Counted from the stretch's first letter, positions 16,885-61,865 are shown. The stretch: 64,000 nucleotides of DNA from a virus (IMGVR_UViG_3300035208_006730), one strand, 5' to 3'. Program-made: numbers and translations. Notes: generated by a model from the letters alone, not told the origin.

Positions 16885-17466
16885 ATGGAAAGAAAATGTT
16901 GGACTCAATCACTATCTGGTATGGAAATTGACTTTCACAATCCAGATCCAAATAATATCTTTATTGATGATATAGCTCATTCTCTGAGTCACATCTGCCG
17001 ATTTACAGGGGCTATCCCAAAATTTTATTCAGTCGCTCAGCATTGTTGTATCTGTGCAATGCATGTTCCAAAAGAATTTAAACTTACAGCACTCCTTCAT
17101 GATGCTGCAGAAGCATTTATTCAAGATGTTAACTCTCCACTAAAAAAGGCAATGAGAGAGATAGCCGAGACAACATCTGATTATTCACTTTATGGAGTGA
17201 CATCTTCTCCTTATGATATTATTGAAGAACGAATGAATCTTCTGATCTCTGAAAAGTTTGGAACGATCTATCCATTTCCTCTTGAGGTTATTGAGGCGGA
17301 TTTGAGAGCATTAGCAACTGAAGCAACTTCTTTTGGTTGTTTAGATCGTGCGCCGAAAAGTTGGGATCTCCCATTTCCTGCCTATAAAAAACTGATTACT
17401 CCTCAGACTTCCAAGACTGCTAAAAAGAAATTTCTTGAGCTCTTCCATTCTTTAACGGAGGGTTAA
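16885..17466 (+). CDS. HD-domain phosphohydrolase (YfbR-like deoxynucleotidase)
   Basis: IDDIAHSLSHICRF, YSVAQH, LLHDAAEA, ADLRALATE. Confidence 0.9.
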   Translation: MERKCWTQSLSGMEIDFHNPDPNNIFIDDIAHSLSHICRFTGAIPKFYSVAQHCCICAMHVPKEFKLTALLHDAAEAFIQDVNSPLKKAMREIAETTSDYSLYGVTSSPYDIIEERMNLLISEKFGTIYPFPLEVIEADLRALATEATSFGCLDRAPKSWDLPFPAYKKLITPQTSKTAKKKFLELFHSLTEG

Positions 17467-30191: not shown

Positions 30192-30416
30192 ATGGCCGAA
30201 AAATATACTGCTTTACCTTGGGTATTCAAAGATGGAAAGCTTTACGGGCAAAACGAAGTTCTTATTGCCACCATAGAGTTCTATCAAGAAAAGGAAGTGA
30301 ATGAGGCTAATCTTGATTTGATTATTCATGCTCCTGAATTATTTGAGGCTCTTGATAAAATGATTCGATTAGGAGCAAGGAAGAAGAATACTATCGAGAC
30401 TCCATTTGCTGTCTAA
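30192..30416 (+). CDS. Small phage protein (T..PW...AN..LI..APEL type)
   Basis: YTALPW...EANLDLIIHAPELFEAL; strong RBS. Confidence 0.7.
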   Translation: MAEKYTALPWVFKDGKLYGQNEVLIATIEFYQEKEVNEANLDLIIHAPELFEALDKMIRLGARKKNTIETPFAV

Positions 30417-31503
30417 TTAATCCACAGATCTTTTCAATTATTTCTTCATCTATAGAACTACCTGTTGGTAATACAAGAGTTCGAGTAACCATTCTTTCCG
30501 TTTCTGGAAGAAGAAGTCCTGCATTTGGAAAATAAGATTTGTAAGGTTCCATCCGATGACATCCTGGATAAAAATATTTTCGCGCAATGATATTATTATC
30601 TACCAATACCTTCAGAAGATCATCTCTATCTTCTACTTCAAGAACTATGTATTGATAATTACATTTCTCATTCTCGTTATATTGAAGAAGTTTTACTCCT
30701 GGGATATTTTCTAGTCCCTTTTTGTAGGCAAGATAATTTCTTTTGTTGATAGCAATTATTTTATCTATTTCTTCAAGACTTGTTAATCCCATAATCGCAG
30801 AAAACTCTGTCATCTTTCCATTTGTACCCACATAAATGATGTTATCTGGCCCGTTAAAACCAAAATTCTTCATTAGCCTGACTCTCTGTGCCAGTTCATC
30901 ACTGTTTGTTGAAATGGCGCCTCCTTCACAGCTATTTAAGAATTTAGTTGCGTGAAAAGAGAAGACTTCTATGTTTCCAAAGTTACCAATCATCTGTCCA
31001 TAATTAGAACATCCAAAGGCATGGGCAGCATCAAATAATACTGAAAGACGATGATCTGCTGCAATGTTTTCTATTGCGTCAGTATCTGCCGGTCTACCCC
31101 AAAGATGGACCCCTAGAATTCCTGAAGTCTTTGGGGTAATTAGTTTTTCTATTTTCTTTGGATCTAAGTTATGTGTTTCTGGATCTATATCGCAAAAGAC
31201 AGGAGTAATCTTTTGCCATTGAAGCGCATGTACTGTCGCAACAAAGGTAAAAGATGGAACTATAACTTCTCCTTTTAGTCCAAGAGCTCTAATTGCAATT
31301 TCTAAGCCAATAGTCGCATTATTTACAATAATTACATGTTTTGTTCCAATAAATTTTTGTAATTCTTTTTCAAATTCTTGAGCATATTTCCCATTGTTTG
31401 AAAGCCATTTGCGATCTAGAGCATCATTTAGTCGAAGAAGAAGTTTTTCTCTATTAGGGATATTGGGTCGACCAACTAAAAGTTTTTCGGGAAATAGAGA
31501 CAT
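30391..31503 (-). CDS. DegT/DnrJ/EryC1/StrS PLP aminotransferase (VioA/Per-like NDP-4-keto-6-deoxyhexose transaminase)
   Basis: NNATIGL, VPSFTFVAT, DAAHAFG, FSFHATK (PLP Lys), EGGAI, GTNGKMTE. Confidence 0.93.
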   Translation of the reverse strand: MSLFPEKLLVGRPNIPNREKLLLRLNDALDRKWLSNNGKYAQEFEKELQKFIGTKHVIIVNNATIGLEIAIRALGLKGEVIVPSFTFVATVHALQWQKITPVFCDIDPETHNLDPKKIEKLITPKTSGILGVHLWGRPADTDAIENIAADHRLSVLFDAAHAFGCSNYGQMIGNFGNIEVFSFHATKFLNSCEGGAISTNSDELAQRVRLMKNFGFNGPDNIIYVGTNGKMTEFSAIMGLTSLEEIDKIIAINKRNYLAYKKGLENIPGVKLLQYNENEKCNYQYIVLEVEDRDDLLKVLVDNNIIARKYFYPGCHRMEPYKSYFPNAGLLLPETERMVTRTLVLPTGSSIDEEIIEKICGLIRQQMESR

Positions 31504-31506
31504 TCT

Positions 31507-31599
31507 TTACTCGTACTGCCAAAAATTTCCTTCGGCTTTAATGGTAGATCGATCTTCAGGAAGAGCCATAGAAAGATCTGTTGTCCAAATAGAGTCCAT
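31507..31599 (-). CDS. 30-aa ORF or gene remnant
   Basis: TAATG-coupled to the upstream methyltransferase; fills gap. Confidence 0.3.
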   Translation of the reverse strand: MDSIWTTDLSMALPEDRSTIKAEGNFWQYE

Positions 31600-32321
31600 T
31601 ATTTTCCCTTCTCGCAAACAAGAAAAATACTACTACAAAGATCTGGATATTGCTGACCTAAAGAGTAACAACCTTCAAGATAATCTTCGGAAACAATTTG
31701 TTGAGGAATGACTTGATCCCATTGAAAATTAGCTAAAGCTTTCAGAAAGATTCCTGAACGATGAACAATATTAAGCCCAGCAAATTTAGCATCTCTTTCA
31801 AGAGTATCCATTGTATAGGTTATTCGATGGCCATGTTGATACTCTGATTCTGTCACAGCGGTAGTATGAGAGATCAATCCCATTCGAACAGCAATTTGTC
31901 TAGATAAGGCATTAGCGTTTGGACAAATAAGAAAAAGTCGCCCTATATCTGATAGCCATTCGTTATTAATTCTTTGAAGCGTAGAAATAGGATTATCTAG
32001 ATGTTCAAGTGTATGGATTAGAAAGATATTGTCGTATTTTTCAGGAAGCTTTACAGTTTCGAAAAGTGAATGAATAATTGTAACATCTACTTTTTTTCTT
32101 GCTTCTTCTATGGCTTCAGCTGAAGCTTCAACACAAGTAATGTTCTCTAGCCCTCCTAATCTTTCAGTAAAATCTCCACGAGAACTTCCTAATTCAAGAA
32201 AGTTTCGACCTCTAATAAAAGGGGCAATTGAACGAAGCATGAATGAATGCATAAGATAGTCAAAGTTATAGACGTATTTATGGTTAGATGTATCCTGATT
32301 CTCCTGATTATAATCTCTCAT
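31599..32321 (-). CDS. Class I SAM-dependent methyltransferase
   Basis: LELGSSRG, CVEAS, HTLEHLDNP, ICPNA. Confidence 0.9.
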   Translation of the reverse strand: MRDYNQENQDTSNHKYVYNFDYLMHSFMLRSIAPFIRGRNFLELGSSRGDFTERLGGLENITCVEASAEAIEEARKKVDVTIIHSLFETVKLPEKYDNIFLIHTLEHLDNPISTLQRINNEWLSDIGRLFLICPNANALSRQIAVRMGLISHTTAVTESEYQHGHRITYTMDTLERDAKFAGLNIVHRSGIFLKALANFQWDQVIPQQIVSEDYLEGCYSLGQQYPDLCSSIFLVCEKGK

Positions 32322-32401
32322 CTAGTCTCCTTAGAAGAAAACTAGATTTAGTATATTCTTTATTTTTTTGCCATGGAAGAGCTGGTATTCCTTAATAAGA
32401 A

Positions 32402-32959
32402 TTATATAAGATTCCAGTAGTTACTCTCAATGCAAATTTTTCTGTAATCATCAGACGTTATGCCAACAAGAATTTCATCTAAGTACTCATTGTGTCTAAA
32501 AATCCACTCTCTACGACAACCCTCTTCTATCCAACCAAGTTTTTTATAGAAATTCAGACTAGGAGTATTAGTCGATAATATTGAGCCATCAAGTCTATGA
32601 AGACCTAGCTCATCAAATGCAAATCTCATTGTTGCCATTACAGTGTCGAAACCAAGACCCTTCTTTCTATTTTGTGTGTCGCCTATCATTAGGCCATGCC
32701 AAGCTCTTTTGTTCCTCCAATTAATTTCAATAAGACTAGAGATGCCTATCGGCACTTCTTCAAAAGAAACAATAAAGCGCTGATCTAATGGCTCAGCTTC
32801 TAGTTTTTTAATCCAATTTAGATGATAATTTTTAGAGTTAGGGAAATAAATTGTACCCATGGACTCTTGAGTATCTGTATCATCCGCCCATTTTTTTAAA
32901 AAGGGAAGATCCTCTTCTTCTATCGCTCGAAGAATAACAAGTTTTCCTTTAATATTCAT
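32402..32959 (-). CDS. GNAT (RimJ/RimL, PseH-like) N-acetyltransferase
   Basis: LRAIEEEDL, RKKGLG, FAFDELGLHRL, N..S..FYKKLGW..EG..RE. Confidence 0.9.
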   Translation of the reverse strand: MNIKGKLVILRAIEEEDLPFLKKWADDTDTQESMGTIYFPNSKNYHLNWIKKLEAEPLDQRFIVSFEEVPIGISSLIEINWRNKRAWHGLMIGDTQNRKKGLGFDTVMATMRFAFDELGLHRLDGSILSTNTPSLNFYKKLGWIEEGCRREWIFRHNEYLDEILVGITSDDYRKICIESNYWNLI

Positions 32960-32962
32960 TTA

Positions 32963-33901
32963 TTACTCCTGAAGGACTGCTACACCAAAACCATATTTTC
33001 CAAATTCATTCCCATTGTAGAGCATGAAAGTTTTATTGTTGAATTTAAAAACATGAGGATAGTGCTGCATTTGTGAATCCCAACCATTTGACGATAAGTC
33101 TATTCCAGCAAGTTCATCTTGTCTGTTCCAAACAAAAGCGTTTTTAGACCAAGCGTATCCAATTCTGTATCCTCTATCATTATTTCTAAAATTAAAAGCA
33201 GGTCTATAACTAAAAAACATATGATATATACCGTCACTAAAAAATACATCAGGACCTGCCTGACATTCTTCTTCTTGTAAAACGCTGCTTATTAAATCTC
33301 TATTTTCCTTCTGCCAATTAATTCCATCATTTGAAATTGCTAGTCTTATTTTATAAGTAGAATCAATATAATCTTTGCTAGAAGTCCATTTCTCTCCAGC
33401 TAGATAATACATAAACCATATTCCATTGAAAATTCTTACTTTTGGACCGCTCAACTCAAATGGTTCTAATAGAGAGTTTGTTAAGATTGGTCCTTTTCCA
33501 TATCTTTTAAAAGAAATTCCATTATCATCGCTTATAGCTAAACCTATAGAAACAGTATACGGAACAGACTGACATCTTGTCCATCCTCCATAATACAGTC
33601 TAATTGAATTATCATATTTAATTATCGATGTAGGATAAATTCCAAACTCATCAAATGTTCCTAATTCTCCTAGGGAAAGAATTGGTTTCTTGGCAATATT
33701 AATAACTTTAAAATTCTGATCTAAGTCTATAAAAGCTGTATAGCTAACATACTGATTATTTTTTGCTTCGGGTCTACAGGAAAAATATACTCTTATAAAT
33801 TCATCAAAAATAAGCGTACTAGTACACTGGGCATGAGAGTTCATCCACGAAATTTTAAACATCTGTGGATTAAATACTTGTCCTAGTTTCTTCCATTTCA
33901 T
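32963..33901 (-). CDS. Five-bladed beta-propeller glycoside-hydrolase-like protein
   Basis: MKWKKLG, GTFDEFG, repeated IGLAISDDNG / LAISNDGINW / IGYAWSKNAFVW, LYNGNEFG. Confidence 0.8.
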   Translation of the reverse strand: MKWKKLGQVFNPQMFKISWMNSHAQCTSTLIFDEFIRVYFSCRPEAKNNQYVSYTAFIDLDQNFKVINIAKKPILSLGELGTFDEFGIYPTSIIKYDNSIRLYYGGWTRCQSVPYTVSIGLAISDDNGISFKRYGKGPILTNSLLEPFELSGPKVRIFNGIWFMYYLAGEKWTSSKDYIDSTYKIRLAISNDGINWQKENRDLISSVLQEEECQAGPDVFFSDGIYHMFFSYRPAFNFRNNDRGYRIGYAWSKNAFVWNRQDELAGIDLSSNGWDSQMQHYPHVFKFNNKTFMLYNGNEFGKYGFGVAVLQE

Positions 33902-34596
33902 CTTAATTCGTACTCCTGTAGATATTCTTGTATCTTATTTTTTGAATTAAACATAATTACATCTAAAACGGAAAGCCACGGAACAAAATTATCTCCAAAC
34001 TGTAAGTAGGAAAGATTCTCATTCGTAAATAAGAAAGAGAGTTTAATTTCATTAAAATTTTTCCGATGATAAAGCTCAGTACCACCTCGAGGATTAATGT
34101 ATTGGTCTACTTTTAATTCCTTACAGATAGCTATAATCTTATCTTCTCCTTTTAATGAGTGATCAATTGAAATAGTAGAAGAGATAATAAATGGAGTTGT
34201 GATTTCTAGATAAGAATTTACTTTTTGAAGAGATCTTAAAAGATACTGAAAAAGATTAATTTCCTCAATATCAAACACTTCTTCGAGTAATTTGCTTCCT
34301 TCGTTAAAAAACGGAGCTCCGTTGTAAGCAGTAATAACTTTATTTAAAATTTTCTTTTTGTCTTGCTGCCAAGTTTCAGCTAGATACCTGTCTCTGATGT
34401 CCAACGTATCAGAATTCTTCTTTAGAGGTAGTGTAAAGTAAGCATCTTGTTCGTTCAGTAGATAACGATTTCTGTTGATCCAACCTTTTTTGGTGTATTG
34501 AATATTATCCCAAATCACAAACTTATCTACAACTGATATTAATTGGAAATATCCAATATACGGAAGAAAATAAGGTTGCATAATAGCGAGTTTCAT
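33898..34596 (-). CDS. wbqC: WbqC-family protein (putative glycyltransferase)
   Basis: MKLAIMQPYFLPYIGYFQLI, QYTKKGWINRNR, YINP.GG..LY, FVPWLSVLD. Confidence 0.92.
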   Translation of the reverse strand: MKLAIMQPYFLPYIGYFQLISVVDKFVIWDNIQYTKKGWINRNRYLLNEQDAYFTLPLKKNSDTLDIRDRYLAETWQQDKKKILNKVITAYNGAPFFNEGSKLLEEVFDIEEINLFQYLLRSLQKVNSYLEITTPFIISSTISIDHSLKGEDKIIAICKELKVDQYINPRGGTELYHRKNFNEIKLSFLFTNENLSYLQFGDNFVPWLSVLDVIMFNSKNKIQEYLQEYELR

Positions 34597-35423
34597 TAAA
34601 ATACTTCCGTATCCAAAAGAGGATTAAACTTGCATATTGTTTCAGGAAGAACGTTTGAAACAATTTCTTTCATTGTTTTTGAATATTGCCACCAATCTCC
34701 CAGAAGAAGATGTTCTTCAAACCACTTAATTCTTTCTTGGTATCCAATAGGGAATATTTTTTCATCTGCGCGAAAATCAAAACCATAAACTCCAATATTT
34801 AGGAAACGATTAATATGAGTTTGATAGGTTTTCCAATTTCCCTTTTTCAGAGCAAGAATCATAATTTCATCTAATCCAGTTGGTCTTCCATCAGGAAGCT
34901 GAATATGCCATCCATTTCTCGTAATAATAAAATTTTCTGCCAAAAATTGTTTAATAAAATTCTTTGTTATGACTGTTCCCCATGGACAATACCAGGGAAT
35001 AGGATTCTCAAAAAAACCAAGATTATTTACTTCTTCTTTTCTATAGGTTTCACCAGTTAAAAAACATGCAGTGTCTGGTAGTGAGATTACTGATATATTT
35101 TTTTTAATAAATTGTAAAAAGTTTTTATGTAACAAAATGTCTTCTTCTACTGGAAGAAAGAAAGTATCCATATCTTCCAAGATAGTTTTTATTCCTTCCA
35201 TTGTATTTCTTGTTATACCATAATTACTTGGTCTTTTTATTATCTTTTTGGGAAATGGAAATTCTTCTGCAAGATGGTAGGTCTCTACAGCTGCCCCACC
35301 ATCAATTAAAAAAAATGTAGTAATATCAAAATCTTTAGCTAAATTTCGCGCTTCTTGTTCGTACTTTAAGGAAAGATAAAGCATCTCAGGTCGATTAAAA
35401 CATGTGCGAAAAATATAGTTCAT
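34596..35423 (-). CDS. Putative GT-A fold glycosyltransferase
   Basis: FNRPEML, YGITRN, PVEEDILL (DxD equivalent), PWG, NIG. Confidence 0.6.
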   Translation of the reverse strand: MNYIFRTCFNRPEMLYLSLKYEQEARNLAKDFDITTFFLIDGGAAVETYHLAEEFPFPKKIIKRPSNYGITRNTMEGIKTILEDMDTFFLPVEEDILLHKNFLQFIKKNISVISLPDTACFLTGETYRKEEVNNLGFFENPIPWYCPWGTVITKNFIKQFLAENFIITRNGWHIQLPDGRPTGLDEIMILALKKGNWKTYQTHINRFLNIGVYGFDFRADEKIFPIGYQERIKWFEEHLLLGDWWQYSKTMKEIVSNVLPETICKFNPLLDTEVF

Positions 35424-36058
35424 TTTAACCTCAAGATAAACGGATAGTTTTCTGGATTCTTTTTATCAAATGGAAAGGTTTGAGTTGCTTCAAAATTAAC
35501 TATCTCGTAGTTCCTTAATTTAAATTCTTGTTCCCAATCTTCTTTCGTGAGGACAACGTAATGTTCTATGGTCCAATTCGAATCAAATCTCTTCATTCCA
35601 TTTTTATTTAGAGGAACTGTGAGAGATACCTGAGATGAGACTTGTTGAAGTTTTTCAAATAATTCTGGATAAAAATTATAAGGAATATGTTCTATGATAT
35701 CAAGGGCAACAATCAGATCGTAAGTTTTTGTTATCTCAATATCTTGGGCTGCTTGATGCCTAATAAAAGAAGCGATTTCTGGAACAATTGGATGAGCGAT
35801 AGACCATTCAGAAATATCTATTCCTTCTGCTTCAACTCCTCGATCTCGAAAAGCTTTTATTAGAGAACCTCGTCCGCATCCTAATTCCAATACAGTATTT
35901 GGATGAAGAAGATGAATCAAGTCTTCTGCTATACCGTTCCATCTTTCGGTTCTATTGTAATGTTCTGGATCAGCAAATCCACCCGGAACATCTCCAAATT
36001 GATGTGCTCCGTTATATTTCTCTCCATAAAGTTCAGACATTAAAATTTTATCATACAT
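35420..36058 (-). CDS. Class I SAM-dependent methyltransferase
   Basis: VLELGCGRG, GIDISEW, YDLIVALDIIEHI. Confidence 0.9.
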   Translation of the reverse strand: MYDKILMSELYGEKYNGAHQFGDVPGGFADPEHYNRTERWNGIAEDLIHLLHPNTVLELGCGRGSLIKAFRDRGVEAEGIDISEWSIAHPIVPEIASFIRHQAAQDIEITKTYDLIVALDIIEHIPYNFYPELFEKLQQVSSQVSLTVPLNKNGMKRFDSNWTIEHYVVLTKEDWEQEFKLRNYEIVNFEATQTFPFDKKNPENYPFILRLK

Positions 36059-38087
36059 TTTCTACTCCAAGATCTGCTTCTACCATCATTCGAACTAGGT
36101 CTCTGAAATGAACTGATGGTCTCCATCCTAATTCTTCTCGAGCACGAGTCCAGTTAGCTTTCAAATAATTAACTTCTGCTGGACGATAAAGACCTGGATC
36201 TATTTCAATGAAATTCTGATAGTCTCCAAGACCTGCAATCTGAAATGCTAACTCGAGAAATTCCCGAATTGTGTGAGTTTCTCCTGTGCCAATAACATAG
36301 TCGTCTGCATAATCATGGTTAAGCATAAGCCACATTGCTTTAACAAAATCACCTGCAAATCCCCAATCACGAGCTGTATCTATATTTCCTAATTTGATTT
36401 TCTGAATCTTGCCCGCGACAATATCTTTGATTCCAAGTGTAATTTTTCTGGTGACAAAGTTAGATCCGCGACGAGGGGAATTCCCAACTATAGCTATCCC
36501 AATTCCAGCCATCACAATACCAGATTCTGTTTCTATGTCAAAGACATGTTGATTATCTTCAGATCTATTTATTATTTTTTTTACTATATTATTGTCTAAT
36601 ATTAAGTGGTCTCCTTTTGATCTAGTCTTATTGGGAGATCTTAAATTAATCTGATGATAAACTTTTCCATTTTGTTCAAATGTATTAATACAGTATTCAG
36701 ACTTTATAGTATTGTTAACCAAGTATAGAATCCCTTGGGCTAACAAGGGAGAGTTTGTTTTGAATGATTTAAATTCATAATTTGTTTTGTCTTGTTTAAG
36801 TCCATCAGCTTGATTATATCCTTTTAAAAATGCTAACTGAATTTCAGATTTTGCATTCAAAATAATTGCTGGTACTTTTTTATGTTTAGTGCGGGTTTCG
36901 TAAAGCATTTCTCTTAACACTTCGCATTGTGACTGAGTTAATCCGTGTAGGTCAACGTGAGTAGTTGTTCCATTATAACCAGATACATGACTGTTAATAG
37001 AAGAAGTAATATTAAAAAAGGTCTTTTTTGCTAAGGCAATAAAATTTTGTTGTATAATAGGGTCGTTATTTGTTAATCTTACTCCTTTCGAAATATGTCC
37101 ATCTCCTGCTAAAAGACCAAGTAATTCTGCAAATTCTTCTGTAATAAATTTACTAATTCTACAATCTGGATATCTTCCCAAAACCAATTGTGTTCCATTA
37201 GTCATTTCTCTCGCTTCTTTGGTTTCTATTTTAGTCTTAACTAATTTGTGATTTGGAGTTGTAGCAATAGAGGCTCCAGGAGCAATAGTTATTTGTCTAT
37301 ACTGATCTGTGGCATTTTGTAACATAGAAAGCTTTCTACGAGATACGGCTTTAAGTTTAACAAACTGATTTCCGTCCCATATATTTGTATTAAGAGAATC
37401 ATATTCTTTAATATATGTATTTGAGTCACTACTAATGTCTTTTCTATGAGGAACAAGGGAGGAAATATAGACAATGTCAATATCTCTATTTTCTTTTTCA
37501 ATTATCACTGGAGTATCAGCGAAGAAACACTCATGGTTGAAAAGTATCCCTGAAACAGCATACATATTATAGGCTTCTCGATAATGCTTTGTCCACCAAA
37601 ATCCTGCTAGTTTAGCGATGCCATAAGGAGAACGAGGATGAAATGGAGTCTTCTCACTTGAACCATTGACCGTAATGCTTTCAGTTAATCCTCCGAAAAG
37701 TTCGCTCGTACTAGCATTATAGAGCTTTGTATTAATTCCTGATACCCGAATTGCTTCGAGACAATTAAAAGTCCCAATTGCATTACAGTTAAAAGTATAG
37801 ATAGGCTGAGAAAATGAAGTTCCAACATGACTTTGCGCAGCAAGGTGATACATTTCATCAGCTCTAACCATCTTACAAATATTAGTCATACTAATTAAAT
37901 CTGTTACATCACCCTCTTCTAATCTAAAGTGAGGATTATCTAGTAAATGCTGAACGTTTCCTCCACTATTAGAAGAATTGCGTCGTTTAATTCCCACAAC
38001 ATCATAATCTTTTTCTAGAAGAAATTCAGATAAATATGATGAATCCTGACCACTAATACCAGTTATTATTGCAACTTTATTCTTCAT
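36051..38087 (-). CDS. gmd: GDP-mannose 4,6-dehydratase with intein
   Basis: ITGISGQDSSYL, LAAQSHV, ASTSELFG, PRSPYGIAK, GILFNHE|...|SPRRG..FVTRKI, RDWG, RPAEV. Confidence 0.96.
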   Translation of the reverse strand: MKNKVAIITGISGQDSSYLSEFLLEKDYDVVGIKRRNSSNSGGNVQHLLDNPHFRLEEGDVTDLISMTNICKMVRADEMYHLAAQSHVGTSFSQPIYTFNCNAIGTFNCLEAIRVSGINTKLYNASTSELFGGLTESITVNGSSEKTPFHPRSPYGIAKLAGFWWTKHYREAYNMYAVSGILFNHECFFADTPVIIEKENRDIDIVYISSLVPHRKDISSDSNTYIKEYDSLNTNIWDGNQFVKLKAVSRRKLSMLQNATDQYRQITIAPGASIATTPNHKLVKTKIETKEAREMTNGTQLVLGRYPDCRISKFITEEFAELLGLLAGDGHISKGVRLTNNDPIIQQNFIALAKKTFFNITSSINSHVSGYNGTTTHVDLHGLTQSQCEVLREMLYETRTKHKKVPAIILNAKSEIQLAFLKGYNQADGLKQDKTNYEFKSFKTNSPLLAQGILYLVNNTIKSEYCINTFEQNGKVYHQINLRSPNKTRSKGDHLILDNNIVKKIINRSEDNQHVFDIETESGIVMAGIGIAIVGNSPRRGSNFVTRKITLGIKDIVAGKIQKIKLGNIDTARDWGFAGDFVKAMWLMLNHDYADDYVIGTGETHTIREFLELAFQIAGLGDYQNFIEIDPGLYRPAEVNYLKANWTRAREELGWRPSVHFRDLVRMMVEADLGVENV
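36480..37529 (-). mobile_element. Intein in Gmd (350 aa, LAGLIDADG type, ends Gly-Asn)
   Basis: FNHE|CFFADT...TPNH...LGLLAGDG...GYNQADG...VFDIET...IVGN|SPRRG. Confidence 0.93.
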
Positions 38088-38853
38088 GATTTTTGTCCCA
38101 TTTGTAACTGTAACACTTAACAGGAGATGGTCCTATATACTTAAGTAAAGATAGAAATCCATTTTTACCTTCTATTCTAATTCTATTATTTGGAGTTAAA
38201 TGACTAGAAATTCCCTCTTTATCGAGTAAGATAACAAGTCTTTCATTATCTCCTTTTGTAAAAGCTTCAGTGCAAAAATAACCTCCATATGTTGCTCCAT
38301 TTTTTTCTTGATGTTTCGTACCATCTCCTAACCACCACCAAAGAACAGTTATTGGAGTTAATATCAAATCTTGTGGAATAAATTTTATTTTATCCTTATA
38401 CCATTTTGTTTGTTCATCTTTTAACTGCAAAGAACTTCTAGTTCTAGAGTGCCATCCTAATGTTTTTTTATTATATTTTGGAAGAGACCAAAGTAAACTC
38501 TCGGTTTTTGATATAATCTCATTTGCCATTTCTAAATATTTAAATCCAAATGAAGCTCTTGATTGATAACCCGTACATTCAAGATGTAAATCGCTTAATA
38601 ATAATCCATATAAAACTTCTTTTTCAACCGGGGAAAATGAAATTGATTTATTTTTCCAAAGTCTTGTGCATTCAGATGGAGATCTTCCATTAAAATCAAA
38701 ATATTTACACCATTTTTCTATGCAACTTATTGAACAAACTAGTTTTTGAGCAATTTTCGATTGACTTAAGTTTTGGTTATAATACATATCGTAAAGTAAT
38801 GTTTTAAACTCTTCTTTATCAATTCTAAGTTTCTTATGTAATCCTACTGGCAT
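38077..38853 (-). mobile_element. Free-standing LAGLIDADG homing endonuclease with N-terminal HTH
   Basis: LSQSKIAQKL HTH; YGLLLSD and WWWLGDG motifs; CTEAFT; YSYK end; abuts both neighbours. Confidence 0.85.
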
Positions 38854-39957
38854 CTATATTTCCTCGCAAGATTCAATGAATCGTTTGATACAAAGATCCC
38901 AGTTGAAATGTTTAACAAGATGCTTTCGAGCTTGTCGACCTTTTTCTTGTCCTTCTTCTGGATTATCAACAACTCTTTGCATCGTTTGAATTAGTTGTCC
39001 AATATCTGGTTGCGCCCATAACATATCACCTTCATACCAGGGAATCCAGGGCATTTTATTGGCTACAGTCAAAGAGTAATCCAATGGATAAGAGTTTTCT
39101 TCGGTCATAAAATCCATGTTACCTGAAAACCCTGTAGCAATAATTGGCTTACCAAAAGACATTGCATCAGCAATTGGCATTCCCCAACCTTCAGCTCGAG
39201 CTGGAGAAACGTAACAATCTCCTAGACGATGAAGCTGGTTGATTTCATCATGAGATAAAAGACCTCCAATAAGAAAGATTGGAGGATAATGTTTCAATGG
39301 TTGTTCTTTTTTCAAAGCAATAATTTGTTGTTTGATAAGATTCTTCTGAGCATCAGAAGTATCAGAGCCATAGGTCTTTAGGATTAGACAAACATTTTCA
39401 TTATTAGTAAATGCCGCCCAAAAAGCTTTCAGTAGTCCAGAAGGATTCTTCCGTTCTGTCCATTGGAAAATAGAATAAAACCTGTATTGAAAGCTATCTA
39501 TTCCTGATATTTCGTATTTCTTTCCTTCGCTTTCTTGAAGGGATACTCCTGGGGATACCATTTTGATCTTTTTGTGTACGCCAGAATTTTTAAAAACTTC
39601 TACATTCCAAGTACAAGGAACAAAGATTCCATCTATCTTGTTGCATTCCTCAACCCACAGTTTAGAAATTCTCGTAGTTTCAAACATTGTAAAACCAACA
39701 TTTTTCGTTGTCTCATCTTTGTAATTCTTGAAATGCTCAGGCGTTAGATTAACTATATTAATATCTGGTTTGATTTTATTGTTCTGAAGGTCCATGCATG
39801 TTTTTGATACTTTATCTTCAGCTGGTTTTACTTTCTCAAATGATACTAGATTTGTTTGTACGTTGTGTCCTCGAGAATGAAGCTCCCAAATAAAATTTCT
39901 GGAGAAGTTGCCATATCCTGAATGATCAAGGAATGGAGCTGTATATCGAATGTTCAT
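38854..39957 (-). CDS. GT4 (GT-B) glycosyltransferase
   Basis: SGYG, ERKNP, ARAEGWGMPIADAM..GKP.IATG. Confidence 0.92.
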   Translation of the reverse strand: MNIRYTAPFLDHSGYGNFSRNFIWELHSRGHNVQTNLVSFEKVKPAEDKVSKTCMDLQNNKIKPDINIVNLTPEHFKNYKDETTKNVGFTMFETTRISKLWVEECNKIDGIFVPCTWNVEVFKNSGVHKKIKMVSPGVSLQESEGKKYEISGIDSFQYRFYSIFQWTERKNPSGLLKAFWAAFTNNENVCLILKTYGSDTSDAQKNLIKQQIIALKKEQPLKHYPPIFLIGGLLSHDEINQLHRLGDCYVSPARAEGWGMPIADAMSFGKPIIATGFSGNMDFMTEENSYPLDYSLTVANKMPWIPWYEGDMLWAQPDIGQLIQTMQRVVDNPEEGQEKGRQARKHLVKHFNWDLCIKRFIESCEEI

Positions 39958-42500
39958 ATCTGAATTACTCCATGATCTTTCTTTACATCTGTATCTTGAA
40001 GAACTTTATCAAAAAGTTCAACCCATTTTTCGCCAGCTAATTGCCAAGTATTCTTTTGACACCAAGTCACGGCGTTTTTAACTACATTCTGGAGAATACT
40101 TGAAGAGCCTTTCCAAAGACTATGGATTAAAAATATTCCTTTTAAAATATCTTCCATACGTCCTATTGGACGATAGCCAATATTATCAATAAAGATAAGA
40201 TCTTTGCAAGGATAAAGAAATCCTCTTTCTCCATTGGTTCCTGTAAAATCTTTCATATTTGTATTATCTGGAACTAGAACCGGAAGTCCACAAGCTAAAG
40301 CCTCATGAACAGAGTTATGTACTAATACTCCATTAGCAATAAAAGAATGAACATCTTCTACACAAATATCATAAACTTCTGTAGATTTTGATTCTACTTT
40401 TATTTGTTTAACTTTAACGTAAAAATAATTTTTATCTTCTAAGAAATAAACTGCAGATTTTCTATTAATTATTTTCCAATTAAAAGATTGATTAATAAAA
40501 GTGGCCCACCGCTCTAGATGTGAACCAACAATTTTGCAAATAAAAAATGAATGTTTTCCTATATTTTTTGGAGGATATTCTTTTGTGGATATCAAAATAT
40601 TATTTGCCGCACAAATGTATTTTGTCTGATACGCTAAGGATGGAGATATAGTTGAAAGTGAATGATGTCTTCTTTGATAATTTAAGTGTCCATCTCCTTG
40701 AAATAATGAACGCATTAAAGGTCCTAATTTTTGGGGACTTTTTAAAAGAAAACTAGGTATTCTTTTATTATAGGAATGAATTCCACAAATAGTTCCCATT
40801 ACTTTTGCTAATATTTGGCCCGATACACGAATTCTACATTTATTTGGACCATTTTGTTCCACAATACCTTGTGTCTCAAAAATACAAGATAGATATTCGT
40901 TGAGTTTATGGGCGAAAGATAATTCATCTATATTTAAATCTATTTCGATTCTTTGTTTATTACTGTTGTTTCCTTCACTTAGATACCAACCTAAAAAATA
41001 TAAAAATTCATCAGTAATAGGAATATATCTTCTTATTTTTAACTGCTGAGTATTTACCAATGTATTAGTTTTACAAAGATCTTGAGAAATACTATAGGCT
41101 AAAGAACTAGGTAATCCTCTACTAGCAGAAGAAACATTAAGAAAAGCTCGTCTTGCATCTTCTGCAACTCGCTTGCTAACTTTATATTTTTTCTGTATGT
41201 CGGAAATTGACATTCCATTTTTTCTTGGTGAATATCCCATTTTATACCAAATATATTCGCCATCTGTTTCTATTTCTTCATTTTCAAGATAATCTAAAAG
41301 ATCTAAATTCATAGGTAATTTATCATTTTCTGTAGACTTAGGTATAGCTAAAAAATCTCCAGTTTGAATGTCTTTAGCTTTAGTCCATAAGGGATTATCG
41401 ATATCTTTAGTTTTAACGTAAAAAGGATGTTCTGCTGTAACCTGAATATCCGATGAATACATTGTTTTTATTGTTAAAATCTCTTCAACTATACGACTCG
41501 TTTTATTTAAGACCTTATGAAATTTACCGTCTCCACCAACAACTTGATCGCCAATTAAAATATCTTTAATCGAAATAACACCTCTATATGTGTCTAATTT
41601 TGTTAATGAATCAAGGCATAGACCCCAACCCTCACCCAGATGATTGGATATAAACATGTCTGCAGCACCATAAAGCTGATTCAGGATAATATCAGGAATT
41701 CCTTTATTCGCCGAGTATCCTCCCGGAAAAAGAACTTGCTGTTCCGTTAGTCCTAAATCTTTGCATGCCGAAAGAAGATCGATTCCATTATCTTGAGGCT
41801 GACAGTGGAGATAGAGCATTGAATTAGGATTCTTTTGACGGAAGAGAGAGTAAGCAAGAAGTGTTTGAGATAATTGTTTCCGATTAGAATTTCTGTTTAC
41901 ATTTATGATGAGAAACGTATCGTCTGCAATATGAAATTTTTCTCTTCGAATTCCGTACTTCATTTCCTTTTTGATTGGATAAAACTTTGAAGTATCAACT
42001 CCATGTGGAATTTTTTCCAGCTTTATTTGCGGAAATATCTTCAATGTTTCCTTAATGCCAAAATCATTGTAAGCAACTGCGACATCGGCAAAAGAAATCA
42101 TCTCTGCAAGTTGAGGTAAGAGTTTACAGTCGACAGGATAGTAATAGATAACTTTAGGAAATTTCTTTTTAGCTACAAGGTAGTCTTCTTTTACTTTTTT
42201 GAGCATTGGCACAGAGTCTTGTACGACAAAAGTGTCATTCAGAATCCAAATGACATCATATTCTTTAGTACGAATAGCTCTTTCAAACATTGCTCTTCCG
42301 TAAGGATCAGAGGGATCTAGCAGTCGCGCAGGAGAAATAGTGTATGGAAGATTATGAAATTGACCAAGATAATTGATTCCAAGAACATCTATTTGATATC
42401 TACCTGTGTCTTGTAAAGCTTTGAGAACATGCTGACTCACGATACCAAATCCTGTAGAACAGGTTGGAGAATCACAATAGGCTAAAACTTTTACTTTCAT
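39954..42500 (-). CDS. GT4 (GT-B) glycosyltransferase with intein
   Basis: DSPT..TGFG, PHGVD, NRNSNRK, GEGWGL|intein|SVHEALACGLPV. Confidence 0.93.
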   Translation of the reverse strand: MKVKVLAYCDSPTCSTGFGIVSQHVLKALQDTGRYQIDVLGINYLGQFHNLPYTISPARLLDPSDPYGRAMFERAIRTKEYDVIWILNDTFVVQDSVPMLKKVKEDYLVAKKKFPKVIYYYPVDCKLLPQLAEMISFADVAVAYNDFGIKETLKIFPQIKLEKIPHGVDTSKFYPIKKEMKYGIRREKFHIADDTFLIINVNRNSNRKQLSQTLLAYSLFRQKNPNSMLYLHCQPQDNGIDLLSACKDLGLTEQQVLFPGGYSANKGIPDIILNQLYGAADMFISNHLGEGWGLCLDSLTKLDTYRGVISIKDILIGDQVVGGDGKFHKVLNKTSRIVEEILTIKTMYSSDIQVTAEHPFYVKTKDIDNPLWTKAKDIQTGDFLAIPKSTENDKLPMNLDLLDYLENEEIETDGEYIWYKMGYSPRKNGMSISDIQKKYKVSKRVAEDARRAFLNVSSASRGLPSSLAYSISQDLCKTNTLVNTQQLKIRRYIPITDEFLYFLGWYLSEGNNSNKQRIEIDLNIDELSFAHKLNEYLSCIFETQGIVEQNGPNKCRIRVSGQILAKVMGTICGIHSYNKRIPSFLLKSPQKLGPLMRSLFQGDGHLNYQRRHHSLSTISPSLAYQTKYICAANNILISTKEYPPKNIGKHSFFICKIVGSHLERWATFINQSFNWKIINRKSAVYFLEDKNYFYVKVKQIKVESKSTEVYDICVEDVHSFIANGVLVHNSVHEALACGLPVLVPDNTNMKDFTGTNGERGFLYPCKDLIFIDNIGYRPIGRMEDILKGIFLIHSLWKGSSSILQNVVKNAVTWCQKNTWQLAGEKWVELFDKVLQDTDVKKDHGVIQI
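40314..41618 (-). mobile_element. Intein in GT4 glycosyltransferase (435 aa, LAGLIDADG type)
   Basis: EGWGL|CLDSLT...VTAEHPF...LGWYLSEG...LFQGDG...VYDICV...GVLVHN|SVHEA. Confidence 0.95.
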
Positions 42501-43585
42501 ATTCTTTCGGCTCCTACCATAATTTTTGGTTCTATCTTTTCTTCTATAATCTTGTAAGCAAGAGTTAGAATGTCTGCGGCTTTAATTGACTTCCAGCAAA
42601 TCTGATGTCTACATTTTCCAATTTCTGAATACCAACATGGGCAAAGCTGACAAGCTCGTTTTCCGGGCCAATAAGCTGTAGCTGTAGGATATTGATCAGT
42701 TCTTGCTCGAGCATCAGTATGACCGAAAATGGCAAGAACCTTTTTATCTAAAGCCGCTGCAAGATGTAACATAGCTGAATCAGGACAAATAATTAAACTA
42801 GAATAATAAATAAGAGAAGCGATTTTCCTAACACCTGCATTCTTAATTTCTTCGTCTGCACATCCATCCCAATAGACATCTTTGGTATAATCTGAATCAT
42901 GAGTGAAAAGAAGAATCTTTACGTTTCTTAATGTGCTCCTTAATGTCCGAGCAACATCTTTCATAATGTCAGGTTCTATACTTCTCTGAATATTACTAGC
43001 AAATGGAGCAATACAAATAAGTTTTTTATCTCCTAGACGTAACTTTGTGGCAAGCCAAGTTTTAGCTTCAACGAGTTCTTGTTCGGTAGGAACAAATATT
43101 GGTTTTCTATCAGAAAGAGTTACTCCGATATGACGCGCAAAAAGATCCATTCTAGAAATTGGGTTGGGTGGTACGCCATTTTTTACTTGTTCGTGAGCTA
43201 CACAGGGGCAATGAAGATCAAGAATTGCATCGAATTCTTCTGGAACAATATTCGTCCATGGAATGATATTTTGGACAAATGGATTGTTCTGAAGAGTTTC
43301 AATCAGAGCGCCTTTTAAATAATTTGTATTAGTTGCATAAGTGATTTTGCATCCAGGAAATTGCTGATGAAGAAATTTTGCTATTGGCGTACTCATTAGG
43401 ATGTCGCCAATACCTTCTCCTCTTCTAATGCAGATATCAGGGGCATGAATCCCGTTAACAAGATTATGAATTCTACAAAGCCTTTGTCCATGTTTAGTTG
43501 TTGGAGTAACTCTACATGTTGGATTAAGGGTTTGATTAACTGGCCGTTTCCATTCGATTGTTCCATCAGAGGATACTTTGTTCAT
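42497..43585 (-). CDS. GT9 (heptosyltransferase-family) glycosyltransferase (ORF open to 43633)
   Basis: GIGDILMSTP, CPDSAMLHLAAALDK...IFG, C..CPC..C Cys cluster. Confidence 0.9.
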   Translation of the reverse strand: MNKVSSDGTIEWKRPVNQTLNPTCRVTPTTKHGQRLCRIHNLVNGIHAPDICIRRGEGIGDILMSTPIAKFLHQQFPGCKITYATNTNYLKGALIETLQNNPFVQNIIPWTNIVPEEFDAILDLHCPCVAHEQVKNGVPPNPISRMDLFARHIGVTLSDRKPIFVPTEQELVEAKTWLATKLRLGDKKLICIAPFASNIQRSIEPDIMKDVARTLRSTLRNVKILLFTHDSDYTKDVYWDGCADEEIKNAGVRKIASLIYYSSLIICPDSAMLHLAAALDKKVLAIFGHTDARARTDQYPTATAYWPGKRACQLCPCWYSEIGKCRHQICWKSIKAADILTLAYKIIEEKIEPKIMVGAERI

Positions 43586-43640
43586 GTGTCTTCCTTCTTT
43601 AGAAAGAATAACACATGATTTTCGGGAAAGCAAAAGATAT

Positions 43641-45701
43641 TTAATGAGCTAATGCGGGATGTTTGAAGGATCGAACCTTCTTTTGAAGATCTTCGTAGGT
43701 GATTCCGAGTGATTGACAGATCAAAGAAACAACTCCATAAAGTTCTCCAATAGCTCCAAGGGATAATCCATCAAGAGATTTTCGAGAAACAAATCCGTTC
43801 TTCATTACTCCAATACGTTCAAGATCTTCTTTATGGTATTGAAGAACTTGATCCCATTTTCCTGCCATTATATAGGCTGCATCTTGACAAGCAAGGGCAT
43901 CTTGTTCTTCATCGAATCCACCACCAAGTGCACTACCATCATAAAAAACATCACCATCACCTTGAATTACAAATCTTGATTGACCATTATTTGCTATCAT
44001 AAAAATATTTCCTGAATCTGGCCATGCAGTTCCACCGCCACCACGGTCTGTGTAGATTGCGTTAAAAATAGTGGGACAATAAGCTGTTCCAGAAACAGTA
44101 GTTGTATTTGTATCTCCGTACGAATTGCATTGGAAGGTATTTTCATTACCATTATTGTTAAAAACTTTCATTACAAAGTGAGAGGCAGAAGCCTCACAAT
44201 TTATTACTGTGTCAGTTGGAGCTACTAAAGAGAAAGAATGACCGCATCCTGCATGCCTAATCTCAGCAAATAAATCTCCATCTCCTAGAATAACATCGGG
44301 AATAGATAAGCAAAAACCAGCATCAATGAATGGAACAACAGTCGTTCCTAAAACATTCACTTTTCCTAGAACTAATTGTTGAGTTAATACATCCTCTAAT
44401 TGAGTGCTAAATGTAAGAGTTGAATTAACTGGAGATGTTACATCTGTTGCGTTACATTTTATTTCTCCATATTTAATTGTACTAGCTGCATCATCTTGTC
44501 CATAGAAACAGATTCTACCTTTTTCTCCTATTATTCCAGATACAGTTGTACTTTCTGAATACAAACTTAAATAACCTTGATTTAAATCTGCAATCAAATC
44601 TCCATCTCCCCAAAAATACATTCCATGATCAGTATTATCTTCTAACCCTGTATCGGTGAGAGAAAATTTTAAAGCTAGACTTGAATTTGAATCCAACACA
44701 ATAGTTTCCGCTATAAAACTTACTCCACTAACCGTTGTAGAAGATGAAAGTGATCCACATGAAATTGCGTTAGTCACATCAAGAGAATTATTGACTAGCA
44801 GACTTTCAGAGATTGACATATCTCCTGTAAAGTTAGAGTCTCCATCAACAGTGAGACGATTAGCAGGCGTGTCTGTTCCAATTCCTATGTATCCATTGCT
44901 ACTTTGAATAAATAGTGCATCATTCAAAGTGTCTGATCTAAATCTAATATCCATATCAACTTGATCTGGGTTAATATCTATAGATAAATCAGAATAAGTT
45001 ACAAAGGAATAGTTAGAGTTTGGAAGACCACCATTGTACCAAATACCAACAACTTTACTTGGTTGACAATTAATATAGTAATTTCCCGATGATGTTGTCA
45101 TTGCAAGTTCAAGAACCGTTAATCTATCAGTTATCGAACTATCGAGAACTCCTTGGCCGTCATCATTTAAAGCTGCTCCTGTACCATAGATATCATAAGC
45201 TAGTTGCCAAAGATTAAAGTCGTTTAGATTTATCCTGTAGTCCATTGAGGTATTGTTACTTGTCCCGCCAAAAATTCGATAACCAATTAATTCTTTTTCT
45301 GTTTCCGATAGAATAGCTGATGAAGCTGAAATTAATGTCGTTAGATTCGATTCAACAGTATCTGCGTAGGAATAGAGATCTACTAATTGATCTTTAATCG
45401 TATTGGGTCTAACTTGAGTCGAATTGAAATAGTCTCCTTCTGTTGCGTCTGGGTCTACATAGATAGTTTCTCCAGAAATACCATTGGTAAATGCATCGAC
45501 TTTATCCTCTCCATCTGTAGTTGTGATTCCAGACGGTAAAGAACTTAAAACAAGAACAAGAGAATCATTCCAACTCGCTTGGATCTGAGTCAGATCTGCT
45601 GAAAGTTCAGCTATTGTATCGTTCAATAGAGCAGAAGATGCAGGTCCATTCTTTCTGGAATTTCGTTTGAATAGATTTATAATCAAACTTGTTAATTTCA
45701 T
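43641..45701 (-). CDS. Tail fibre/spike-like virion protein
   Basis: N-terminal helical domain, IGIGTDTP..LTVDG fibre repeat, beta-rich body, chaperone-like C-terminus. Confidence 0.7.
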   Translation of the reverse strand: MKLTSLIINLFKRNSRKNGPASSALLNDTIAELSADLTQIQASWNDSLVLVLSSLPSGITTTDGEDKVDAFTNGISGETIYVDPDATEGDYFNSTQVRPNTIKDQLVDLYSYADTVESNLTTLISASSAILSETEKELIGYRIFGGTSNNTSMDYRINLNDFNLWQLAYDIYGTGAALNDDGQGVLDSSITDRLTVLELAMTTSSGNYYINCQPSKVVGIWYNGGLPNSNYSFVTYSDLSIDINPDQVDMDIRFRSDTLNDALFIQSSNGYIGIGTDTPANRLTVDGDSNFTGDMSISESLLVNNSLDVTNAISCGSLSSSTTVSGVSFIAETIVLDSNSSLALKFSLTDTGLEDNTDHGMYFWGDGDLIADLNQGYLSLYSESTTVSGIIGEKGRICFYGQDDAASTIKYGEIKCNATDVTSPVNSTLTFSTQLEDVLTQQLVLGKVNVLGTTVVPFIDAGFCLSIPDVILGDGDLFAEIRHAGCGHSFSLVAPTDTVINCEASASHFVMKVFNNNGNENTFQCNSYGDTNTTTVSGTAYCPTIFNAIYTDRGGGGTAWPDSGNIFMIANNGQSRFVIQGDGDVFYDGSALGGGFDEEQDALACQDAAYIMAGKWDQVLQYHKEDLERIGVMKNGFVSRKSLDGLSLGAIGELYGVVSLICQSLGITYEDLQKKVRSFKHPALAH

Positions 45702-45710
45702 TGAATGCTC

Positions 45711-51133: not shown

Positions 51134-51134
51134 T

Positions 51135-53105: not shown

Positions 53106-53106
53106 T

Positions 53107-55218: not shown

Positions 55219-55227
55219 TTATTTACC

Positions 55228-57900: not shown

Positions 57901-57908
57901 TCACCACC

Positions 57909-61835: not shown

Positions 61836-61865
61836 TATTATCTCCCAACCACTAGAATAACACGC

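Follow-up and report, generated by a model that had tools for sequence, protein, structure and literature searches.

We have analysed a 64,000-nucleotide stretch of viral DNA (hereafter the window; bases 28522–92521 of the 158,879-bp linear IMG/VR virus record IMGVR_UViG_3300035208_006730), in which a cluster of sugar-enzyme genes at positions 30391–43633 directly follows the outer tail (baseplate and fibre) genes of a large phage. In our reading, which we hold at about even chances, this cluster would be a cytoplasmic protein-glycosylation system that decorates the phage's own outer tail proteins. Such a system would explain at once that the enzymes are soluble and that no lipid-carrier or export gene is present, that a virus-restricted GT9-family glycosyltransferase (GT9) leads the cluster, that in one clade the glycosyltransferase (GT) core keeps a fixed place beside the tail genes with variable cassettes after it, and that the tail proteins carry a short motif specific to them. 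More tentatively, we propose that this GT9 branch is a cytoplasmic protein O-glycosyltransferase whose sequon, T-x-S-G-hydrophobic, lies on baseplate and fibre proteins throughout a clade of uncultured jumbo myoviruses, with a conserved core and swappable cassettes.

In the scheme that we favour, whose acceptor, order of steps, sugar and timing of expression we infer, both inteins found in the cluster would splice out and a GDP-mannose 4,6-dehydratase (Gmd) would turn host GDP-mannose into GDP-4-keto-6-deoxymannose, a DesI-like aminotransferase then yielding a 4-amino-4,6-dideoxyhexose. A WbqC-family protein and a GNAT acetyltransferase would N-acylate the amino sugar, and two methyltransferases would add methyl groups. 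GT9 would probably prime Ser or Thr within T-x-S-G-hydrophobic sites of folded or folding tail proteins, and two GT4-family enzymes, a GT-A-like enzyme and perhaps a GH130-like enzyme would lengthen the chain. Because the GT9-GT4-GT4 core is conserved and the tailoring cassettes can be swapped, the exposed glycan would differ from lineage to lineage. The gene content, the solubility of the enzymes, the synteny and the motif statistics on which we draw are direct observations.

A virus-restricted GT9 and a motif on the tail proteins

GT9 opens the cluster and is its most conserved gene. Its start is probably the ATG at 43585, preceded by the ribosome-binding site AAGGAAG, and not the TTG at 43633; with this start there is a gap of 55 nt after the last tail gene, and the 362-aa product has an identical counterpart in the protein database. 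The protein lies above the Pfam gathering score of PF01075 (Table 1), a domain carried by 21 of its 21 homologues. These 21 were found at E <1e-48 among 5.8 billion proteins, the next match being at 1.8e-6, and a profile scan built from their alignment located GT9 at 32 IMG/VR loci, mostly on contigs of 60–230 kb, while single-sequence IMG/VR scans with GT9 or with the 763-aa tail protein gave no match. Among 185,579 species genomes no match exceeds 28% identity, the best one sitting on contigs of metagenome-assembled genomes. By tblastn GT9 was not found in cultured phages, and one 23% match came from an uncultured 595-kb phage. Judged from these searches, the GT9 family is tight and virus-restricted.

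The AlphaFold2 (AF2) model of GT9 (pLDDT 86) shows the two-Rossmann GT-B fold. Its VIA Z-scores are 26.0 to 3TOV, 23.5 to WaaF, 22.9 to TibC (the longest alignment, 295 residues) and 21 to WaaC, and the next unrelated GT-B group, the UDP-GlcNAc 2-epimerases, reaches 16 at most. The lipopolysaccharide (LPS)-type and the protein-type GT9 enzymes are inseparable by fold, their Z-scores lying within 5 units. Within the family the GxGD motif with the catalytic base (G58-I59-G60-D61) is nearly invariant and the donor-binding residues D269, S270 and H274 are invariant, and both GxGD and DS..H align to 3TOV and WaaF. The protein is predicted to work as a GT9-type enzyme. Its C-lobe also carries a family-conserved knuckle at residues 315–330, [C/H]-P-[C/H]-W-Y-x3-5-C-x4-5-C-W, with [C/H]315, [C/H]317, C325 and C330 as ligands; the first two switch from Cys to His together in four members, and this paired switch marks a probable metal site. 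Against the LPS heptosyltransferase equivalogs TIGR02193, TIGR02195 and TIGR02201 the protein scored 35.3–36.7 bits (cut-offs 134.6–185.3), with a match to the C-lobe motif only. The VIA list also contained subunits of plant NDH-PSI supercomplexes (7WFF chain a, 9GRX and 7F9O), at Z 19–20, level with true GT9 enzymes and well above the other GT-B folds.

The nine large ORFs (open reading frames) directly upstream of the cluster encode outer tail proteins that are the candidate acceptors. The motif T.SG[ILVMFYW] (T-x-S-G-hydrophobic) occurs 18 times in them, against 1.28 expected from shuffles, and nine times in the rest of the proteome, against 3.9, five of these nine being in other ORFs of the sheath-to-capsid part of the virion gene run. 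An unbiased scan of three- and four-residue patterns ranked T.SG (24 against 3.7, p 2e-12) and TVSG at the top. The upstream tail genes of five relatives with the same gene order (Type A, see below) contain 34 motifs against 3.4 expected, concentrated, as in the window phage, in the homologues of the 1006- and 563-aa proteins, and TVSG is again top-ranked there (21 against 0.75). Among about 34 motif-bearing alignment columns, one is conserved in all six sequences and five are common to two or three, and many of the columns lie inside lineage-specific insertions. Turnover of positions at a maintained density would be expected of a short linear recognition site, and not of an inherited structural element. 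We regard T-x-S-G-hydrophobic as a statistically robust candidate sequon on the tail proteins.

Gene content and proposed pathway of the cluster

Judged from its genes, the source of the record is an uncultured 0305phi8-36-like jumbo myovirus with a contractile tail. The nearest cultured relatives, Bacillus phage 0305phi8-36, Acinetobacter phage ME3 and Moorella phage MTATph1, are distant, with sheath proteins 27–40% identical across part of the protein (tblastn). The cluster DNA has no near-identity match among 50,697 cultured phage records, and tblastn with the 563-aa tail protein found no match in cultured phages. CheckV gives the record as 83% complete, so that all whole-record negatives below apply to that part, 17% of the genome being outside the data. 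The same protein set appears on a second contig of 185.8 kb, and phage DNA was present in five sequencing runs from landfill and groundwater metagenomes of four studies.

PHROG scans outline a plus-strand replication module (UvsX, a split PolB with inteins, a 1241-aa primase-helicase and ThyX) and an 88-kb minus-strand virion run, which reaches genome position 146649 and ends with the sugar cluster. In order, this run encodes a TnpB-like transposase, an intein-bearing terminase and portal, the major capsid and sheath proteins, three giant proteins (2123, 1445 and 1974 aa, with an M23 domain in the last), small baseplate proteins and the nine large ORFs, of 301–1043 aa, which match "virion structural protein" PHROGs. 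Every ORF of the window from 63557 down to 30391 lies on the minus strand, with gaps of at most 95 nt or short overlaps, an ORF map that bears out the co-orientation from the baseplate genes to 30391 on which the original prediction was built. The last 12 consecutive ORFs, spaced in the same way over about 13 kb, make up the cluster (Table 1). All the enzyme families named in that prediction were recovered, with support from Pfam, NCBIfam and ESM Atlas, and its list lacked a LAGLIDADG_2 gene and two inteins.

Table 1. Genes and inteins of the sugar cluster and the adjoining tail genes (window coordinates)
Feature	Position	Strand	Length	Evidence
Nine large outer tail (baseplate/fibre) ORFs	43641–63557	−		PHROG 21059, 21108, 19683; after M23-bearing hub protein
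GT9-family GT-B glycosyltransferase	42497–43585	−	362 aa	PF01075 40.5 bits (cut-off 22), E 2.6e-10
GT4 with intein	39954–42500	−	848 aa (413 aa spliced)	Glycos_transf_1, Intein_splicing, LAGLIDADG_3
Intein with LAGLIDADG in GT4 (aa 295–729)	40314–41618	−	435 aa	Junctions EGWGL/C...VHN/SVHEA
Second GT4	38854–39957	−	367 aa	PF00534 E 4e-10, PF13692, PF20706
Free-standing LAGLIDADG_2 homing endonuclease	38077–38853	−	258 aa	PF03161 E 9e-14
GDP-mannose 4,6-dehydratase (Gmd) with intein	36051–38087	−	678 aa (328 aa spliced)	PF16363 E 2e-106
Intein with LAGLIDADG in Gmd (aa 187–536)	36480–37529	−	350 aa	Junctions FNHE/C...IVGN/SPRRG
SAM-dependent methyltransferase 1	35420–36058	−	212 aa	Methyltransf_23 E 7e-15
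GT-A-like (GT2/GNT-I-like) putative glycosyltransferase	34596–35423	−	275 aa	ESM Atlas
WbqC-family protein	33898–34596	−	232 aa	PF08889 E 2e-62, full length
GH130-like five-bladed propeller	32963–33901	−	312 aa	NF052550 53 bits (cut-off 450); weak PF04041
GNAT N-acetyltransferase, PseH-like	32402–32959	−	185 aa	Acetyltransf_4 E 2e-15; TIGR03585 PseH 72 bits (cut-off 93)
SAM-dependent methyltransferase 2	31599–32321	−	240 aa	Methyltransf_23 E 5e-13
DegT-family sugar C4-aminotransferase, DesI/VioA-like, last gene of the run	30391–31503	−	370 aa	PF01041 E 9e-105

The first GT4 is 47% identical to an intein-free 452-aa homologue in a Type-A relative (L005), and the second GT4 adjoins the first in Type-A relatives too (33–38% identity). 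For Gmd, TIGR01472 gave 366.5 bits in two stretches split by the intein, the cut-off of 415 being meant for an uninterrupted protein, and the exteins are 57% and 52% identical to an intein-free homologue in L014; with the intein discounted, these matches identify it as a genuine GDP-mannose 4,6-dehydratase. Both inteins have the features of class 1 (Cys1, a C-terminal Asn followed by Ser, an endonuclease domain, and Pfam Intein_splicing and LAGLIDADG_3), and intein-free homologues align across the GT4 and Gmd junctions, the insertions being in a conserved motif of the host protein. The GT4 intein ends in H-N729/S, while in Gmd the penultimate residue is Gly and not His. Inteins recur in the relatives, in GT9 (L011–L013), GT4 (L010) and Gmd (L015, L019, L020). 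The phage itself is unusually intein-rich, with oversized PolB, primase-helicase, terminase and portal genes (window 10317–15107 and 26366–30091; genome 134291–138553 and 127859–131335). The free LAGLIDADG_2 gene, which sits between the second GT4 and Gmd and overlaps the Gmd start by 11 nt, is a selfish insert and no pathway enzyme.

The 275-aa GT-A-like ORF had no Pfam, PHROG or NCBIfam match; in the ESM Atlas it groups with virus clusters bearing GT2, GNT-I or MGAT2 (features 0.98, structural TM 0.69–0.80), which makes a glycosyltransferase a lead for this ORF. WbqC, of which no solved relative was found, presumably tailors an amino sugar by N-acylation, as in O-antigen clusters; a literature search on WbqC biochemistry and N-acetylglycyl amino sugars found nothing usable. 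The propeller is GH130/GH32-like and matches PDB 9FJ8 (E 5e-9) and 7FIP, a kinship with beta-1,2-mannoside phosphorylases, and may be a phosphorylase-type transferase or a trimming enzyme. The aminotransferase scored 442 bits with TIGR04427 (DesI), below the equivalog cut-off of 650, and is much closer to DesI (2PO3, a dTDP-sugar enzyme, E 3e-106) than to GDP-perosamine synthase (3BN1, E 9e-53).

No reductase is present, so the aminotransferase is the only enzyme of the cluster able to use the Gmd product, and the product of the cluster would therefore most simply be a 4-amino-4,6-dideoxyhexose, carried by GDP or by host-made dTDP. The record has no sugar nucleotidyltransferase, and the phage would thus rely on GDP-mannose of the host. 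WbqC and the PseH-like GNAT suggest N-acylation and the two SAM methyltransferases methylation. There may be four or five transfer enzymes, namely GT9, the two GT4s, the GT-A-like protein and possibly the propeller as a fifth. This gene content supports a multi-enzyme pathway in the cytoplasm, encoded by the phage and equipped with a tailoring branch of its own for a 4-amino-6-deoxyhexose, and, together with the solubility of the enzymes, agrees with the rare-sugar pathway adjoining the outer tail genes that had been predicted from the window.

The cluster proteins have no transmembrane segment (the highest 19-residue Kyte-Doolittle mean is 1.44), as had been predicted. A hydropathy screen of the whole record found no polytopic membrane protein, no ORF having more than three marginal hydrophobic segments, and no candidate for Wzx, Wzy, WaaL, GtrA, GtrB, a WecA-type enzyme, a polytopic Gtr-type protein or an initiating phosphoglycosyl transferase. 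Wzx/Wzy-pathway families are likewise absent among the 25 most frequent of the 49 Pfam families in 104 downstream ORFs of relatives. The predicted lack of GtrA/GtrB, flippase, Wzy and ligase holds, therefore, for the whole record. As an argument against serotype conversion it goes part of the way: it excludes conversion of the O-antigen type and leaves a route of the LPS-core or lipooligosaccharide (LOS) type.

The lack of a base hydroxymethylase, also predicted, extends to the whole record, where PF00303 (ThyA type) is unmatched and one ordinary ThyX (2307–3029) was found. This bears on DNA hypermodification, in which the glycosyltransferases would put a sugar chain on a modified base and so evade restriction and CRISPR. 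We consider it very improbable, even though some phages are known to build DNA glycans with several GTs (Pyle et al. 2024, as cited in PMC12619734), the cluster of the Type-B relatives described below sits with replication genes, the window has ThyX and a dNMP phosphatase (PHROG 318), and the second GT4 touches PF20706, "GT4 in conflict systems", at 27.9 bits. The small genes accompanying the Type-B cluster show no base-modifying family by Pfam, a chain with an N-acylated, methylated 4-amino-6-deoxyhexose and four or five transferases would lack precedent, and the motif on the tail proteins would be left unexplained. The dNMP 5'-phosphatase lies at window 16885–17466 (E 2e-56), and its presence with ThyX and without a hydroxymethylase points to manipulation of the nucleotide pool.

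The plus-strand module is closed by a 74-aa ORF (30192–30416) with a strong AGGAGG ribosome-binding site, convergent with the DegT gene, the 3' end of which it overlaps by 26 nt. No terminator-like hairpin lies between the plus-strand module and the minus-strand run, those of the region being all inside genes.

Relatives of the cluster and its possible acceptors

Two gene orders appear among the relatives. In Type A, with about 12 loci, a few small ORFs come after the homologues of the 1043-, 763- and 686-aa tail proteins, and GT9, GT4 and GT4 follow, all on one strand, with a GT9 33–47% identical to that of the window. The 686-aa protein is conserved across its first 120–220 residues only, as expected of a fibre with a variable distal part. 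Downstream of the GT core come about 10 kb of variable content, with 104 ORFs among which are 19 GT4, 12 SDR dehydratases/epimerases, 8 GT2, 3 DegT and 2 NTP-transferases, as well as methyltransferases, GNATs and sulfotransferases; the methyltransferases, GT-A-like protein, WbqC and propeller of the window have no BLAST homologue in the locus of any relative. Some Type-A relatives have, between the last tail-fibre gene and GT9, a homologue of Volactin, an archaeal-type actin family (about 330 aa, PF25216, E 3e-58 to 3e-61; L005:8940-9932 and L011:9007-10002), and ORFs of 331–351 aa stand just before GT9 in L007, L013, L014 and L015. The window's own record has no Volactin homologue.

Type B (about 14 loci) has a tandem GT9-GT9 fusion, sometimes with a third GT9, no GT4 pair, and pyruvyl- or methyl-transferases. 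In this clade (L017–L029 and L032; e.g., L018:9863-11860 and L018:11853-12776) the fused proteins have 650–914 aa, with two GT9 domains or, in L028, three. They are accompanied by a further GT9 gene, and a fusion of polysaccharide pyruvyl transferase and methyltransferase comes next. In three Type-B phages and one divergent Type-A-like phage the homologues of the tail proteins have 5 motifs against 6.1 expected, and an unbiased scan of the Type-B tail proteins found no other motif to be enriched, except for collagen-like repeats in one genome. This genome (G006) encodes two giant tail proteins rich in collagen-like G-P-T repeats (L052:3078-7931 and L053:1947-5477), with TG.TG observed 183 times against 1 expected.

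The position of the cluster between the replication and tail modules is conserved, its strand is not. Seen in the original prediction as a continuation of the late run, the cluster has this arrangement in the window phage and, on the same strand, in the roughly 12 Type-A loci, but not in Type B, where it runs with replication genes and converges on the tail genes.

Several observations weigh against tail-protein glycosylation. Presence or absence of the motif tracks phylogenetic distance, the motif-bearing phages being also the closest relatives, and this confounds its link to the GT set. In relatives, the homologues of the proximal tail proteins s1043, s763 and s686 are not enriched (6 against 3.5). 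At least two instances of the motif coincide with canonical fn3-type strand motifs (residue 654 of s703, TVSGLKSGIKYYF, and the conserved site 125 of s563). In the model of the 563-aa protein (pLDDT 78), DSSP gives a mixed picture for the four motif sites, which fall on a strand start, a strand edge, a loop and a hairpin turn; Foldseek with this model returned only meaningless multi-domain beta matches (TM ≤0.15). The Type-B cluster is co-oriented with the primase-helicase block, and co-transcription with the tail genes is therefore not a conserved property. Within the cluster, a sigma-70-like site at the end of the GNAT gene (32430–32401, minus strand; TTGAGA-18-TATAAT, 11/12 matches) is the best of the region and precedes one of the only two gaps of the cluster, upstream of methyltransferase 2 and DegT, although promoter-like sites are not commoner than in shuffles (57 against 66) and this one may be a chance match. 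The listed sequencing runs with the phage include no RNA run. GT9 is basic (pI 8.8), which is equally compatible with membrane association and hence uninformative. Enzymes of the WaaC, WaaF and WaaG type, which are soluble or peripheral, work at the inner leaflet on lipid A-core, the product being flipped by the MsbA of the host, and GT9 and GT4 could act there without a flippase of their own. The published opinion on such jumbo-phage clusters is host-surface modification (PMC7824862).

In another reading, which we find improbable, the glycan would go onto a different acceptor, a non-virion phage or host protein (flagellin, pilin or S-layer, for example) or a small molecule, with the tail motif as a beta-sandwich feature of the clade. 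Some motif instances do match ordinary fn3 strand motifs, and the sites at strand edges and turns of the s563 model are where a structural motif might be expected; a purely structural motif should, however, be conserved in position, whereas the positions turn over between homologues. The motif is not enriched in the homologous proteins of more distant relatives, and the cluster is syntenic with tail genes.

The main rival reading is host-envelope remodelling, which seems to us rather unlikely. Here the soluble GT9, GT4 and GT-A enzymes would act at the cytoplasmic face on a lipid-linked glycan of the host (lipid A-core of the LOS type, an undecaprenyl-linked unit or a teichoic acid precursor), exported by the host MsbA or TagGH, with the effect of blocking superinfection or of keeping progeny off debris. 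GT9 and GT4 are indeed the families of the LPS core enzymes WaaC, WaaF, WaaQ and WaaG, for which no dedicated flippase is needed, and WaaF and WaaC are among the top fold matches of GT9, whose basic charge would also suit this reading. The three GT9 domains of Type-B relatives recall Hep I–III, the Type-B cluster runs with replication genes, the variable cassettes resemble O-antigen diversity, and both jumbo-phage and cyanophage sugar clusters have been read in this way (PMC7824862; PMC12801897). Yet GT9 fails every LPS heptosyltransferase equivalog and its family is without a close cellular relative, and envelope remodelling leaves unexplained both the tail-specific enrichment of the motif and the place after the tail genes, conserved in one clade. 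The presence of LPS would depend on the host. Long-term serotype conversion looks unlikely, no integrase having turned up in the record, though no search was aimed at integrases.

Comparison with known systems

Neither sugar clusters nor virion glycosylation is new in phages. What this locus adds is a gene trio led by a virus-specific GT9, which keeps its place at the tail module throughout an uncultured clade, and, in the tail proteins, a candidate sequon. To our knowledge, only a few mycobacteriophages have so far been shown to glycosylate their virions with enzymes of their own, and no acceptor has ever been assigned for the much commoner large sugar clusters in jumbo phages and cyanophages, for which a change of the host surface is the usual assumption. 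Tail-protein glycosylation offers a testable alternative for them, with the enzyme trio GT9-GT4-GT4, the sequon T-x-S-G-hydrophobic and the 563-, 1006- and 703-aa tail proteins as candidate substrates. If true, it would be the first sequon-directed multi-sugar tail glycosylation in phages outside actinobacteriophages and would extend GT9-type protein glycosylation from bacterial adhesins to viruses, and the tail glycans might be a diversifying layer in host recognition or defence evasion. Should LPS-core remodelling be true instead, it would be the first assignment for this class of jumbo-phage clusters.

The components of Gtr-type serotype conversion (GtrA, GtrB and a polytopic Gtr) and of Wzx/Wzy-dependent polysaccharide were not found, nor was the ThyA-family hydroxymethylase of T4-type DNA glucosylation or 5hm-pyrimidine glycan hypermodification in the 83% of the genome seen. 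A more similar gene content is that of the 15-gene cluster of P-SSM2 (Iyer et al. 2021, PMC7824862) and of S-SCSM2R (PMC12801897), which likewise have SDR dehydratases/epimerases, several GT families, methyltransferases and a GH130-type gene, polymorphic between kin. The published reading of these clusters is that they modify the host surface, and no fixed place after the tail run is described for them (PMC7824862; PMC12801897), whereas ours belongs to a 0305phi8-36-like lineage, is led by GT9 and is accompanied by tail proteins with a candidate acceptor motif.

The LPS core enzymes WaaC, WaaF and WaaQ and the GT4 enzyme WaaG are likewise GT9 and GT4 side by side, soluble or peripheral, and share with the phage GT9 the fold (Z 21–23.5) and the GxGD and DS..H motifs. 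The phage enzyme differs from them in its extra Cys/His knuckle, its virus-restricted family and its scores below the equivalog cut-offs, and the phage encodes no genes for Kdo or heptose supply. In giant viruses, chlorovirus Gmd and A064R and the viosamine pathway of mimivirus combine a virus-encoded dehydratase, DegT-type aminotransferase, N-acyltransferase, methyltransferase and GTs into a virion-surface glycan made without host membranes. Their hosts are eukaryotic and their targets capsid or fibrils, and the likeness to the phage cluster considered here is one of enzyme superfamilies.

TibC and Aah, the BAHT class (PDB 4RAP, 4RB4; PMC4358343), are GT9-type GT-B enzymes that O-glycosylate Ser/Thr of beta-rich proteins in the cytoplasm; a dodecameric ring, an ADP-heptose donor and a protein Ser acceptor are features of the class. 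TibC itself, a cytoplasmic protein O-heptosyltransferase, has a four-Cys iron finger in its C-lobe (C339/C342/C358/C370; PMC4358343). The phage GT9 is like it in fold, at the Z-score and alignment length given above. Its four-ligand knuckle, spaced differently as C-x-C-x7-C-x4-C, lies in the same lobe and may correspond to that finger. The GT9 family profile did not match TibC among PDB sequences at E ≤1, while 3TOV, WaaF and WaaC were matched. The N-terminal beta-barrel of TibC (residues 1–97) is also absent from the phage GT9 model, in which residues 1–30 are of low confidence with two short strands only and the Rossmann lobe begins at residue 50.

Closest in principle are the mycobacteriophages, whose own GTs attach glycans to the capsid and the tail tube (Freeman et al. 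2023, as cited in PMC12363180 and PMC12619734). As far as those citing papers describe them, Che8 gp110, Corndog gp38 and Myrna likewise involve phage-encoded soluble GTs acting in the cytoplasm on the phage's own structural proteins, and phage-encoded soluble GTs beside structural genes are what we have found here. From the same sources, one or two GTs act there on the C-termini of capsid and tail-tube subunits, as shown by mass spectrometry. The present cluster has instead four or five predicted transfer enzymes, a predicted nucleotide-sugar tailoring branch and a GT9-type lead, and the proteins that it may target, those of baseplate and fibres, carry the T-x-S-G-hydrophobic motif internally.

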